A DNA stretch of 64,000 bases from NCBI GenBank assembly GCA_963664625.1, contig OY761541.1:2736174-2800173 (forward strand). Direction: 5' to 3'. Positions 57,983 through 61,926 of the stretch are shown here, in pieces. The first letter of the stretch is position 1. Every line of letters starts with the position of its first letter. Below the pieces are notes generated by a model. The model saw only the letters and a program-made list of their open reading frames with translations, had not been told where the DNA came from and searched no databases. The stretch is from Dehalococcoidia bacterium (GTDB taxonomy: Bacteria > Chloroflexota > Dehalococcoidia > Lucifugimonadales > UBA3495). A program made the position numbers and the translations under genes.

Positions 57983-58453
57983 ATGTTGCAACGATGGGAC
58001 CCTTTCAACGACCTGCGGCAGATGCAGAACACCATGGACCGGATGTGGCGGAGGTTCGGGAACAATTCCGGTGAGTCCTTCGAGAACCCTGAAATAGAGG
58101 CTTGGGCCGTCCCCTTGGACGTGGTCCGGAAGGGAGACGACACTTTCATCCGCGCCTCTATGCCGGGAGTGAAGCCGGAAGACATCAAGGTGTCCATAGA
58201 GGACAACGTGCTGACCATCCAAGGCCACACCTCTGAAGAGCACCAGGACGGCGACGGTACGTTCCTGATGCGGGAACGGCGGTCCGGCTCGTTCCACCGC
58301 GCGTTGCGGTTGCCCGAGTCGGTCGATGCGGACAAGGTCCATCCCCATTACCAGAACGGGGTCTTGACCATCACCGTACCCAAGGCGGAGGCCAAGAAGG
58401 CCAAGCAACTCCAGGTGCACTTCGTCGATTCTTCGCCCAACCAGGAAGCTTAA
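57983..58453 (+). CDS. Hsp20/alpha-crystallin small heat shock protein
   Basis: WDPF, MPGV, RERRSGSFHR, NGVLTITVPK. Confidence 0.95.
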   Translation: MLQRWDPFNDLRQMQNTMDRMWRRFGNNSGESFENPEIEAWAVPLDVVRKGDDTFIRASMPGVKPEDIKVSIEDNVLTIQGHTSEEHQDGDGTFLMRERRSGSFHRALRLPESVDADKVHPHYQNGVLTITVPKAEAKKAKQLQVHFVDSSPNQEA

Positions 58454-58505
58454 TCTTCCACAACCGGCTTACTGTCCACGGGGCGCCGGTCGGCGGAAAT
58501 CAAAG

Positions 58506-58615
58506 GGCAGCGCGGGAACGATTCCTGCGCTGCCTTGCTTTTGGGGAACTACTTCCACGAAACCGGAGAAAAACGAAAGGCGCGGGGTCTATTTCTAGGC
58601 CTCCGCGCCTTTTTG
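58506..58615. terminator. Two terminator hairpins between convergent hsp20 and sodN
   Basis: ggcagcgc...gcgctgcc-ttgctttt and aaaggcgcgg...ccgcgccttttt. Confidence 0.75.
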
Positions 58616-58650
58616 CCTATGACGCTGCCGGTCTCAGACTGGGAGCGAGG

Positions 58651-59103
58651 TTAGGTCCCGTAGCGGGCTGCGGCGTTGGGGTCGCTGTATTCCACGTTCT
58701 TCGTTGCCCAGAAGGAGGCGGCGATGTCGTCGCAGGCAGCTACCAGGTTCTGCGCGTTCTCCATGCTGACGCCCTGCTTGCACTGGCCGGCCAACTTGAG
58801 GGCGGCGTTGAACTTGGCGGCGATTTCGTTGGCGTCGACGCCGGGCCAAGCGTAGTCGGCCCAGAGGATGCGCAGCTCTTCCTTGCACCGCTCGGCGTGG
58901 TCTTCCTTCACGGCGATGTAGCGGGACATGGTATTGGCGTAGGCCATATGGTCTTCGCCCTCCTCCAACGCCTGCATCCGAAGCACCATTTTCTGCACTG
59001 TCTGGGCGGCTATCTTGGCGACTATGGGGTCGTAAATCCCACATGGGATGTCACAGTGGGCCTTCGCCCTAGGCACACTCAACCTCTTAAACAAGTTGAA
59101 CAT
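58651..59103 (-). CDS. sodN: Nickel superoxide dismutase precursor
   Basis: Leader then nickel hook HCDIPCGIYDP; KE.HA; FWATK. Confidence 0.96.
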   Translation of the reverse strand: MFNLFKRLSVPRAKAHCDIPCGIYDPIVAKIAAQTVQKMVLRMQALEEGEDHMAYANTMSRYIAVKEDHAERCKEELRILWADYAWPGVDANEIAAKFNAALKLAGQCKQGVSMENAQNLVAACDDIAASFWATKNVEYSDPNAAARYGT

Positions 59104-59259
59104 ACTTGCGCTACCTCGTCTTGTAGAATTGAAATCCCGAACCAGATTACAAGAAAATCACCTCATCCGCAACCTGAACCGGCTTCTACACAGGGCCGGA
59201 GGAAACCGCTCACACTTGGTGCGGGCGTCCCGCCCGCGCTCCTTCGTGGCGGGGTTTCG

Positions 59260-59762
59260 GGGAGGGTTGGCGCTGAGCAACGGGTGGAAACGCCGAGGTC
59301 ACGACCGCTTCTATGACCTGATGAGTCCTCATCTTGCACTTTCGCCTTCTCCGGCAGACCGCGAGGCTTGAAAAGCCCTGGACCGGTCGACGCAGCCGAC
59401 ATTGACCCGGCGGCGCAGCAGTCCTCCGCCGGTCCCTTTGCATACTGCCGGGAAGTTTGCCCCCGGACGGCGCCGGGGGCGCGATGATGCAAGGAAATTT
59501 TCTCTCGCGGGAGATCTCATCGCCTGCCCAAAAGCAGGCGGAATGACAAATCTGACAGTGGACCGGCGGTCCTTGTGTAACCGCCGGTCCGTCGATTGCA
59601 CGTAACACCTTTACGCGATGGGTCTCATCCGGAGCGCCGCCGGAGTCAAGTCCGGCGGGCCGGGTACAGGCGGCGATCAAAGCACCGCCGCGCCGCAAGC
59701 AGGCTATGGAAGGCCCGCCGGGCGATACCGTTTCCACCCGTTGCTCTTGCGCCAGTTTCCCA
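59260..59762. ncRNA. Candidate large structured non-coding element (unknown family)
   Basis: 18-bp perfect long-range stem gagcaacgggtggaaacg / cgtttccacccgttgctc enclosing about ten hairpins; no credible ORF. Confidence 0.5.
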
Positions 59763-59767
59763 AGGTT

Positions 59768-59874
59768 GGGCAACCAATAGGTTTCACATAGGTATTCGCC
59801 GGTTGCCCCTGCGTGTACCCGCTGGATTCCTGCCCCCGCTTTCGTGGGAATGACGAATAGGGAGCGGGAATGAC
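59768..59874. repeat. REP-like unit plus degenerate dRS3-like repeats
   Basis: gggcaaccaatagg...ccggttgcccc; ggattcc...gggaatgac; gggaatgac. Confidence 0.7.
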
Positions 59875-60237
59875 GAGGTTGCCTCTGCGTGTACCCTCTG
59901 CGACAGCCAGAGGGGGATTTACAGTCTGTGACCTCCTTTATTGAGTAGAGGGCGGGCTGCGCAGTCCCGGCCCGCTTTCCAGTGGATACAGGCTAGAGGG
60001 GCGCAATCCTGTGTGTCAACAGGGAAATGTCAGTGGAGGGGCTTTTCACACTTGGCCGGGAAATACTTTGAACATGCCCTGGCTTCACCAAGACTGTCGC
60101 TTGGGCCTTTCGCCGGGCGGTTCTTGAAAGTCCGCAGCGTTGTAACCGATAGTCGCCGTAGTATAATCAGGTTCCTTTCCAAGGCCAATTTAACTAAAAC
60201 ATGAATAGCGCGCCGAGACGTCGCAGGAGGAAGTCTT

Positions 60238-61926
60238 ATGGCCACCACGAGCAGAAACCTGACACTCAAACACCGGAGCAGGGAAGTTACCGAAGGGCCG
60301 GACCGCGCCCCCGCCCGCGCCATGCTGATGGCGATGGGCCTCACCGCGGAGGATATCGACAAACCCTTCGTGGCCGTCGCCAATCTTGCCAGCGATGTTA
60401 CGCCCTGCAACGTTCACTTGGACAGGCTGGCCCAAGCCGCCAAGGAGGGTATCCGCTCGGCCGACGGCGTGCCGTTCGAGTTCGGCACCATCACCATAAG
60501 CGACGGCATCTCCATGGGCACCGAGGGCATGAAGGCTTCATTAGTCAGCCGGGAGGTAATAGCGGACTCCATAGAGGTTGTAACTTTCGGCGAACGGATG
60601 GACGCTCTTGTGACCGTGGGGGCGTGCGACAAGAATATGCCCGGCTGCATGATGGCCATAGCCCGCTTGAACGTGCCTTCGCTGTTCATCTACGGCGGCA
60701 CCATCATGCCGGGCAATTACAATGGACGGGACGTCAACATCCAGGACGTTTTCGAGGCAGTGGGAGCCTACGCCAGTGGTGACATGACACTGGACCAGTT
60801 GCGCGCCCTGGAGTGCGTCGCCTGTCCCGGCGAAGGTTCCTGCGCCGGGTTGTTCACCGCCAACACCATGTCCACTGCCATAGAGATCATGGGCATGTCC
60901 CTGCCCGGCGATGCGTCGATCCCGGCCATTGATCCTCGAAAGGTCGAACACACGCGCCAAGCAGGGCGGACGCTGATGCGGTTGTTGGAAGAAGACCTGC
61001 GCCCGCGGGACATTCTCACCCGCCAAGCCTTTGAAAACGCCATCACCGTAGTGGTGGCTATGGGCGGGTCCACCAACGCCGTTCTGCACCTCATGGCCAT
61101 CGCCCATGAGGCGCAAGTGGACCTGAGCCTGAGCGACTTCGACCGCATCAGCCGGAGCACGCCCTACATCACCGACATGCGCCCGGGAGGTCGGTACGTC
61201 ATGGCCGACCTGGACCGCTACGGAGGAGTGTCCCTTGTCGCCAAGCGATTGCTGCAAGCCGGTCTGTTACACGGCGATACCATGACCGTCACCGGCAAGA
61301 CATTGCAACAAAACGTGGAAGCCATGACCACCATTGATGATCAGCCCGTGGTTATGCCCATGGACCAACCCCGCAGTCCAACCGGCGGGCTGGCCATACT
61401 TTACGGGAACCTGGCCCCGGAAGGCGCGGTCATCAAGGTGGCCGGACATCAGGAAAAGGTCTACCAAGGTCCTGCGCGGGTGTTCGACCAAGAACACGCG
61501 GCGTTCCAAGCCATCCAGCGTCGGGAGATCAAGCCGGGCGACATAGTGGTAATCCGCTACGAAGGTCCCAAAGGCGGCCCCGGAATGCAGGAAATGCTGG
61601 CGGTAACCGGCGCGCTTATCGGACAGGGGCTGGGAGACGACGTGGCCCTGATGACGGACGGTCGGTTCTCCGGCGCATCCCACGGCCCTATGGTGGGGCA
61701 CGTGACGCCCGAGGCGGCAGTCGGCGGCCCCATCGGGCTGTTGCAGGAAGGAGACATCATCACTCTGGACATACCACAGCGGCGTCTGGACGTGAAGTTG
61801 ACCGAGGAGGAGTTCAGCGATCGCCGGGCCAACTTCAAGCCCATGCCTCCCAACTACACCACCGGCGTCCTGGCCAAGTACGCCAAGCTGGTGTCGTCGG
61901 CGTCGGAGGGGGCGGTTACGGGGTAG
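60238..61926 (+). CDS. ilvD: Dihydroxy-acid dehydratase
   Basis: [36 protein letters not shown]. Confidence 0.97.

Follow-up and report, generated by a model that had tools for sequence, protein, structure and literature searches.

Dispersed repeats in bacterial genomes are usually traced to insertion sequences, and the Correia elements of Neisseria are an example of structured dispersed repeats that have promoter activity. DicF of the Qin prophage is a small RNA derived from a prophage or gene remnant. Phage satellites carry the cos or pac site of their helper, and phi29 has a packaging RNA (pRNA). Here we describe a dispersed non-coding mobile repeat that has an unusual origin and a maintained large fold. 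Our literature searches returned general papers on gene transfer agents and on terminases, and in the portions of them that were available to us we found no account of such an element.

The element lies in a window of 64,000 nucleotides, by which we mean the whole stretch of DNA that was analysed (positions 2736174-2800173 of contig C1). The genome that holds the window, G000, is a single contig of 3.76 Mb, and three genomes of the same genus, G001, G002 and G003, served as congeners. An earlier reading made from the letters alone (the sequence-only reading) had pointed to a densely structured non-coding stretch of about 500 nt upstream of sodN and had offered three options for it, an unknown large non-coding RNA, a long metal-responsive sodN leader or a non-autonomous mobile element. 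The description "upstream of sodN" holds for a minus-strand reading only, sodN being a minus-strand gene (58651-59103). In G000 the spacer between sodN and its neighbour ilvD measures 1.1 kb. The features of the locus, in window positions, are as follows.

58651-59103, minus strand: sodN, Ni superoxide dismutase, with the product N-terminus MFNLFKRL...HCDIPCGIYDP
59180-59186: left flanking direct repeat cGGCTTC, a possible target-site duplication
59187-60079, minus strand: inserted block of about 893 bp, missing from the sodN-ilvD spacer of the three congeners
59203-59245: small REP-like hairpin repeat (GCGGGCGTCCCGCCCGC...) within the left extension of the insert, with many separate copies in G002 and G003
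60080-60086: right flanking direct repeat tGGCTTC, a possible target-site duplication
60238-61926, plus strand: ilvD

In all three congeners sodN and ilvD are neighbours, separated by a spacer of about 230 nt from which the element is absent. When the syntenic loci were compared by BLAST with positions 58000-61000 of the window, homology stopped at 59186 in G001, 59177 in G003 and 59186 in G002, and it resumed at 60106, 60071 and 60080, respectively. The empty site in G001 contains a single TGGCTTC. G000 has empty sites at two places where G001 carries a copy, as inserts of 957 and about 836 bp. These two inserts showed no clear target duplication; a direct repeat (6-7 bp) is present at one of the three clean junctions. 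At the sites of three further G000 copies no element was found in the congeners, with the junctions blurred by other repeats or by strain-specific DNA. Certain copies are shared by site between species: the copy at 1079k of the genome corresponds to locus L039 of G001, and the copy at 3185k to L047 and L049. Activity of the family has therefore extended over the whole diversification of the genus. A long metal-responsive sodN leader finds no support in the sense of a conserved leader, as the block is absent from all three congeners examined and the other ten copies stand beside unrelated genes. Annotators should note that what looks like a leader of sodN here is inserted DNA, specific to the strain.

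The ends of the three bounded inserts have no sequence in common, and the inverted-repeat arms are internal, lying about 88 and 330 nt from the insert ends. BLAST and nhmmer searches of the whole unit against the genome returned only the copies and a gene for a large terminase (terL, described below), with no transposase-bearing parent among them, and BLAST found no longer, gene-bearing version of the element in G000. The element is no plain MITE: its inverted repeat lies inside the unit, its ends differ between inserts, and its sole coding relative is a terminase gene and not a transposase. Among the three options of the sequence-only reading the non-autonomous mobile element therefore came closest to the truth: it is borne out by 11 full copies with fragments and by polymorphic insertions, and fails in its plain-MITE form.

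The copy number was decided by BLAST, which showed a dispersed multicopy family and not a single syntenic copy. Many dispersed copies are the outcome that the sequence-only reading had itself set down as counting against its proposal. BLAST of the element against its own genome gave 16 pieces, and BLAST and profile searches resolved 11 full copies in G000, 70-96% identical, with a solo 5' module and fragments. An nhmmer search of G000 with a family profile recovered the 11 element copies at E <= 5e-82 and terL at E 2.2e-11, and a 5'-module profile gave 12 matches. Full copies number about 10 in G001 and 3 in G003. Furthermore, a covariance model of one sub-domain (R1) was run on 151 genomes of the bacterial family; it found 11 matches in G000, 10 in G001, 3 in G003 and exactly one in each of 54 others. 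The closest paralogue in G000 (3429791-3430539) shares 59194-60082 with the window copy. The copies are found in intergenic hot spots where other small repeats are also dense, and several abut strain-specific DNA, defence-gene DNA or a tRNA gene. An element-specific 24-mer had no match in viral contigs (IMG/VR) and none in JGI metagenome contigs. A looser 18-mer scan of genome contigs gave 114 stretches; among 80 examined, five were real and came from two Dehalococcoidia MAG chromosomes.

Comparison of the copies also corrected the extent of the element. The earlier figure of about 500 nt was too small, as the copies are homologous to each other between about 59251 and about 60045. Within the conserved unit the domain is joined, across a zone that varies, to a module of ~170 nt that is conserved (59877-60045). 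Across the family the repeat unit is non-coding and 0.6-0.9 kb long. No open reading frame (ORF) is shared among the 21 aligned copies, in which the open stretches differ from copy to copy. The promoter-like module is kept in 21 of 21 aligned copies. In the window copy a REP-like hairpin is enlarged by nested small dispersed repeats (59768-59810 and 59835-59881), and these have many other copies in G000 and in other genera. The parts of the element, in the order of the minus-strand reading, are listed here.

59990-60033, minus strand: promoter-like module with CTGACA (60033-60028), TTGACA (60019-60014), an 18-nt spacer and TAGCCT (59995-59990)
59950-59975, minus strand: 5' hairpin gcgggccgggactgcgcagcccgcc; in alignments, terL loci have a hairpin in the matching place of the 5' UTR
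59932-59938, minus strand: AAGGAGG, equal to the ribosome-binding site (RBS) of the small zinc-ribbon ORF that precedes terL; the ORF is deleted in the elements
59894-59914, minus strand: hairpin CCCTCT/AGAGGG, varying in sequence among copies and kept as a hairpin
59768-59883: REP-like hairpin GGGCAACC/GGTTGCCC, which in minimal copies reads GGGCAACCacaagGGTTGCCC
59255-59762, minus strand: closed multi-helix domain, the stretch of the sequence-only reading, homologous to terL from its start through about codon 165 and no longer coding
59729-59746: arm of the closing stem P1 (5' arm in the minus-strand reading), derived from the translation-start region of terL (AAAGAGCAACAAGTGATG in the terL of G001)
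59541-59642: optional internal hairpins, missing from short copies
59329-59498, minus strand: R1 sub-domain, the basis of covariance model R1, 170 nt with 7 helices and 37 pairs, one helix having been added by hand
59275-59292: arm of P1 (3' arm in the minus-strand reading), derived from the terL codons for H-L-L-L(IGNP)

The origin of the repeat emerged from the genomes with a single R1 match. All 27 single R1 loci examined, which belong to other genera, also matched the full-domain profile (E 2e-10 to 6e-27). In every one of 16 loci inspected a same-strand ORF crossed the R1 match. Fourteen of these ORFs measured 476-688 aa and two were shorter, at 261 and 359 aa; weak Pfam matches to AAA_19, Terminase_6C or DEAD (P-loop or terminase nuclease) were obtained for 12 of the 16. 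The proteins of these ORFs are 59-69% identical to the product of the G000 gene at 2182646-2184151. This product was identified as a large terminase by its match to phrog_2 (E 3e-41), and the gene next after it codes for a portal protein (PF04860, E 2.6e-68). An HMM of the domain alignment (A1) matched the terL of G001 end to end with 209.5 bits (HMM positions 4-511), and those of G003, G002 and G000 with 68.5, 64.7 and 42.4 bits. Likewise, the 5'-module HMM matched the region upstream of terL in G001 (44.4 bits, E 3.6e-14), G003 (4.9e-8), G000 (6.5e-7) and G002 (2e-6), and it also matched six terL loci of other genera at E <= 0.0013. The upstream order shared by element and terL is CTGACA, TTGACA, a spacer of 18-19 nt with GGATTGC, TAGCNT, a hairpin and GGAGG. 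Further in, the alignment of the domain to terL passes from the start region through the Walker A codons to LLLIGNP, and the whole stretch from the promoter to LLLIGNP is collinear. When the copies were searched by tblastn against TerL residues ~90-225, they gave 25-48% amino-acid identity, with E down to 9.5e-13, in shifting frames.

The elements lack the zinc-ribbon ORF, and they lack terL beyond about codon 165. All copies have common boundaries and common internal deletions relative to terL, indicating that they descend from one unit that had already been remodelled. The TerL protein of G001 is evenly divergent along its length, with 67% identity to that of G000, and this even divergence over the whole protein ruled out the idea that the terL of G001 had been patched at its 5' end by an element. 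The best end-to-end match to the G001 gene, taken with the even divergence of its protein, points to descent of the elements from a G001-type terL allele and not to a local patch. Judged by homology, the repeat is a duplicate of the terL promoter, 5' UTR and first ~165 codons, in which the frame has been lost and the minus strand is homologous to the terL sense strand. As a terL-derived gene remnant it shows both the homology to the gene and the loss of its frame.

The parental module itself has the appearance of an old resident. Of the 151 genomes of the bacterial family 124 have this TerL, mostly with one match per genome, and they span 25 of the 27 genera; its relatives in IMG/VR are only 37-42% identical. 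The terL module thus looks long-resident and vertically inherited. A zinc-ribbon ORF precedes terL in all nine loci examined; it encodes L.CRRC...RCRECGFLFSP within 40-75 aa and has a TTG start after GGAGG. In G000 only terL, the portal gene and an ORF of 112 aa lie together, and the capsid family PF05065 was not found in this genome, which weakens any functional link.

We then turned to the fold. The inverted repeat described in the sequence-only reading is perfect over 18 bp (59275-59292 against 59729-59746, 100% complementary) with 436 nt between its arms, and both its outward extension tggcgc/gcgcca and every one of the nested helices listed in that reading can be found in the sequence. 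Folded as RNA, 59255-59770 reached -256.4 kcal/mol on the plus strand (shuffles -215.5 +/- 6.8; z -6.06) and -271.2 on the minus strand (z -7.95). None of 100 shuffles was as good on either strand, so the proposed comparison with dinucleotide shuffles places both strands far beyond chance. Ordinary 420-nt coding segments of the same genome gave folding z values of -0.2 to +0.4. The sequence-only reading was also right that the strand cannot be told from wobble pairs: when helices were derived without allowing G-U, 18 G-U and 14 A-C cells were counted in them. The alifold energies (-88.7 for minus, -74.1 for plus) show only a mild preference for the minus strand.

Alignment A1 comprises 21 copies in the minus-strand reading, and RNAalifold predicts 75 pairs in it. 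We found that 96.8% of the cells in these 75 pairs were standard pairs, compared with 36-48% when the partners were slid, and that 15 pairs were altered on both sides, compared with 8.3 +/- 1.6 in shuffles (0 of 500). In the R1 sub-domain 94.4% of cells were paired, and changes on both sides occurred in 11 pairs (5.9 +/- 1.5 in shuffles). Over these two tests, four of five measures had observed values that none of 500 shuffles reached, and the count of further pair types was no different from shuffles (50 of 500 and 174 of 500). The covariation check shows an excess of compensatory changes in copies that are interrelated, with many of the changes following one split between two subfamilies, several on a single branch, so that the independent events are few. 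Across the 21 copies P1 is invariant save for one column pair (34/598), which is A-U in 12 copies, G-C in 8 and mismatched in 1. One helix varies among copies from CCGGC/GCCGG to CUGAC/GUCAG to CACGG/CCGUG. Together, these data indicate that the base pairing of the terL-derived copies is under selection.

A precursor of the closing stem is predicted for the terL of G001, where the future 5' arm of P1, AAAGAGCAACAAGTGATG, contains the terL ATG and the future 3' arm, CCACCTGTTGCTC, encodes HLLL. In the computed folds of the 5' 532 nt of this gene, MFE and centroid alike, these arms form the P1-type long-range stem (z -3.24). The homologous segment of 10 terL genes from other genera was not unusually structured (z +1.0 to -2.4), and these values ruled out that terL in general carries the fold; the 78% pairing obtained for terL of other genera comes from an alignment that was fitted to, and leans toward, the model. 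It follows that the fold belongs mostly to the elements and to G001-type terL, and not to terL at large. The terL segment of G000 is unusually structured in its own right (z -5.5 and -4.7).

No Rfam family was matched. With cmscan at E <= 10, the stretch 58900-60400 yielded just two matches, both to anti-hemB, of 16.2 and 14.1 bits where the gathering score is 49.5, and for 12 terL loci no Rfam match reached the gathering score. The families covered include RNase P, tmRNA, SRP and 6S RNA, of which the sequence-only reading had seen no signatures, and group I/II introns, HEARO, GOLLD, ROOL and OLE. The element belongs to no Rfam family, and it is not a riboswitch of sodN. As to the option of an unknown large non-coding RNA, the element in our reading likely encodes one, because a conserved promoter-like module reads into a fold that is kept by compensatory changes; this RNA would, however, be multicopy and gene-derived and not a unique housekeeping RNA. 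A consensus promoter scan did not list the minus-strand site, since its -10 hexamer TAGCCT matches at three of six positions only, and no terminator was found. Matching contigs came from a single RNA library (X1). Its metatranscriptome contigs on 59288-59765 represent relatives' copies at low depth, are unstranded and do not prove transcription; those of the short form join across 59541-59642. No X1 contig lies over 59088-59270, 59820-60063 or the start of ilvD, gaps that are uninformative as the contigs come from relatives at 85% likeness.

The reading that we favour, with moderate confidence, is that of a genus-restricted mobile non-coding family which arose from the 5' end of the terL operon, has kept its fold and would make, from the terL promoter, an RNA that mimics terL mRNA. 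The family is multicopy and, in the window, inserted relative to three congeners; its promoter region and 5' part are homologous to terL, its coding capacity is gone and its pairing is compensated. The course of events is pictured as follows. A piece of a resident phage-type packaging operon, made up of the promoter, the 5' UTR with the zinc-ribbon RBS and the first ~165 terL codons, was duplicated, and in the copies the zinc-ribbon ORF has been lost and the terL frame broken up. The terL-derived body has been kept as a compact fold closed by P1, the arms of which go back to the terL start region and the HLLL(IGNP) codons. Homology to the terL sense strand, together with the promoter, points to transcription of the minus strand from the retained terL promoter, which would begin at about 59983 and proceed toward sodN. 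The product would be a structured RNA of about 0.7 kb, and as no terminator is predicted it might read through into sodN. The retained promoter and the strengthened stem suggest that this RNA could mimic the folded 5' end of terL mRNA, in which a P1-type stem would cover the terL start codon.

What such an RNA might do is more tentative. Being regulated together with terL, it could compete, as a decoy, for any factor that binds the 5' fold of terL mRNA; this is our best guess at a function, although we consider it less likely than not. We are somewhat more doubtful of a broader version, by which mobile non-coding RNA genes from a domesticated terminase operon would act in trans on the packaging module, either as decoys for a translational regulator or as packaging-signal mimics that lead to encapsidation of host DNA. 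On this version a coding gene would have become a mobile riboregulator by a path that is new. As departures of the G-U and A-C type are about equal (18 versus 14) and both strands are structured, a role as single-stranded DNA or as a cruciform may also be considered.

Among the rival explanations the foremost, though in our judgement an unlikely one, is that the family is a purely selfish non-autonomous DNA element, in which the promoter, P1 and the hairpins are cis signals for mobilisation, as single-stranded or cruciform DNA, by an enzyme encoded elsewhere. Polymorphic insertions within the genus would fit this well, as would the position of the copies in intergenic hot spots with other small repeats and the 6-7 bp direct repeat at one of three clean junctions; the wobble pairs give no strand signal and both strands are strongly structured. 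It is harder to reconcile with an inverted repeat that is internal and with termini that are unlike in three independently bounded inserts, BLAST disclosed no longer gene-bearing version in the genome, and a mobilisation signal would not obviously need a terL-homologous promoter with an RBS. We consider it improbable that the copies are packaging-signal mimics, in which the 5' end of the terminase operon would act as a pac-like start and the copies would get themselves and neighbouring host DNA packaged. The pac sites of phages usually lie in or beside terminase genes, and it is just the promoter-proximal portion of the zinc-ribbon/terL operon that makes up the unit. The single-copy terL and portal genes, conserved in 124 of 151 genomes, suggest a domesticated working module, and several copies abut strain-specific DNA, defence-gene DNA or a tRNA gene. 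However, no PF05065 capsid gene was found in G000, where only terL, the portal gene and the 112-aa ORF lie together; packaging would account for spread between cells at one locus and not for insertion at new loci; and compensatory changes are more in keeping with a single strand that folds than with double-stranded DNA bound by a protein.

Less probable again is a mobile promoter or long leader, whose outward promoter and terminator-less RNA would put downstream genes such as sodN under terL-type control or alter the stability of their mRNA. The module does point at sodN with no terminator predicted in between, a gene on the same strand starts 35-300 nt downstream of 7 of the 11 copies, and for one copy and its G001 orthologue the gene start lies about 35-47 nt past P1. 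The count of 7 in 11, however, is no different from chance, and in four cases the element is directed at a convergent gene or a tRNA; sodN retains its ancestral proximal upstream region of 83 nt and needs no new promoter, and the conservation of a fold of 400-550 nt would be left unexplained. We regard as very improbable that the copies are plain decaying terL pseudogene fragments, spread by segmental duplication, with a structure that is chance or relic. The homology to terL and the disruption of the frame are as clear as such decay would have them, but the folding z values of -6 to -8 compare with about 0 for ordinary genes of the genome, the P1 arms are invariant or co-varying in 21 copies that are otherwise 70-96% identical, and all copies have common boundaries and deletions, one insert of about 0.9 kb having a clean empty site. 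We rank these rivals with selfish DNA ahead of the packaging mimic, the mobile promoter or leader next and pseudogene decay, which is unlikely, last.

The mobile family with a maintained terL-derived fold, which remains our preferred reading, is of wider interest for its parent, the front end of a phage packaging gene that a whole bacterial family has kept in single copy, and for the fact that after the loss of coding the offspring were selected for their nucleic-acid fold. If the element is transcribed and acts on terL and the portal gene, it would plainly exemplify a structured regulatory RNA that arose from coding sequence and was then amplified. There would then also be reason to suspect, in Dehalococcoidia, an unstudied packaging system of phage descent that is possibly domesticated. 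Should the copies be merely selfish, they still provide insertions that form a dated series and, for a fold of 400-550 nt, a natural set of compensatory mutants.

Set beside the known systems, the element resembles MITEs and Correia-like repeats in being non-coding, multicopy, intergenic, polymorphic in its sites and self-complementary, with an outward promoter-like sequence. It differs from them in that its inverted repeat is internal, its termini are not conserved and a flanking repeat is present at one of three bounded inserts; furthermore, it is 0.6-0.9 kb long and its parent is the 5' end of a terminase operon, not a transposase element. With the resident module of zinc-ribbon ORF, terL and portal gene it shares the promoter, the 5' hairpin, the RBS and the codons from about the start to LLLIGNP, and the P1-type long-range stem is predicted in the terL mRNA of G001 as well. 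Unlike terL, the copies have no open frame, are multicopy and are far more tightly paired than the terL of other genera. Like DicF-type RNAs, the element is a putative non-coding RNA gene from phage-derived chromosomal DNA; those RNAs are single-copy, short and antisense, whereas the element is a 0.7-kb derivative of the sense strand with about 10 copies. Phage satellites and the pRNA of phi29 are, as the element appears to be from its sequence, nucleic-acid elements tied to a terminase/portal motor, but the satellites span many kilobases and encode proteins, and pRNA is not derived from terL.

The copy of the mobile non-coding element that lies between sodN and ilvD in the window carries smaller repeats of its own, and a predicted ilvD promoter stands beside it. 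These features are as follows.

Window 59203-59245: REP-like hairpin repeat (GCGGGCGTCCCGCCCGC...)
Window 59768-59810 and 59835-59881: two families of small dispersed repeats, both inside the variable zone of the element
Window 60140-60167: sigma-70-type promoter match for ilvD (TTGTAA, 16 nt, TATAAT), a good match at 10/12 positions

One of the two families in the variable zone consists of a palindrome about 43 nt long, GGCAACC...GGTTGCC, and about 12 further copies of it occur in the bacterium's own genome, G000. The second, 'GGGAATGACGA', is about 45 nt long, and numerous copies of it are also found in further genera of the family and order; genome G015, for instance, has at least 12. The GCGGGCGTCCCGCCCGC... 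repeat has numerous independent copies in two congeners, G002 and G003; in a third, G001, it is also present within internal insertions of some element copies. The predicted ilvD promoter is located just beyond the insertion and is kept in three congeners.

We also found features around other copies of the element and elsewhere in the G000 genome.

Genome 3429637-3429713 (L036:2847-2923): tRNA-Arg(TCT) gene, 77 nt off the left end of the closest paralogue of the window copy
Genome 1456117-1457681 (L031:1144-2705), minus strand: carboxyltransferase gene present as two overlapping ORFs
Genome 2182400-2185600 (L200:10400-13600), outside the window: resident three-gene phage-type module of a small zinc-ribbon ORF, the large terminase gene (terL) and a portal gene

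On the opposite side of the closest paralogue are an FRG/pentapeptide-repeat gene and a DpnI-like gene, and the genes adjoining other copies include HepT/MNT, a DNA methylase, MmeI fragments and a ThsB-TIR gene. At the counterpart of the G000 element site at 139.6-140.4 kb, G001 has instead 1.3 kb with a palindromic repeat (G001:C1:195289-196618; L215:2549-3878). This repeat is about 90-140 nt long, and BLAST against the G000 genome gives more than 60 matches to it. The carboxyltransferase ORF pair spans Pfam profile positions 1-291 and 310-493, and could reflect a frameshift, a pseudogene or an assembly error.

Within terL, the segment at 2182901-2183320 (codons about 85-225) was strongly structured, with z values for folding energy of -5.5 and -4.7 in two separate computations. 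For the remaining terL, five other G000 genes and the homologous segment of terL from 10 other genera, values ran from about +1.0 to -2.4, and the portal gene gave -2.0. The Walker A codons of G000 terL are enclosed by a perfect 13-bp stem, AATCGCCGGGTCG/CGACCCGGCGATT.

The TerL protein is present in 124 of the 151 genomes of the family and in 25 of its 27 genera, mostly as a single match and at 57-91% identity. In about 20 genomes of the family, unmatched DNA of roughly 70 nt to 3.3 kb divides the match near residue 295-312, as in the following examples.

G008:C1:780387-780980 with 784283-784828: split TerL match
G083, G093 and G074: further split TerL matches

These breaks could be inteins, introns, insertions or frameshifts. 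Ordinary metabolic genes lie on both flanks of the G000 module, and a search of the G000 genome for a PF05065 capsid gene found none. The module may be a packaging system that has been domesticated, or it may belong to a dispersed system resembling a gene-transfer agent.
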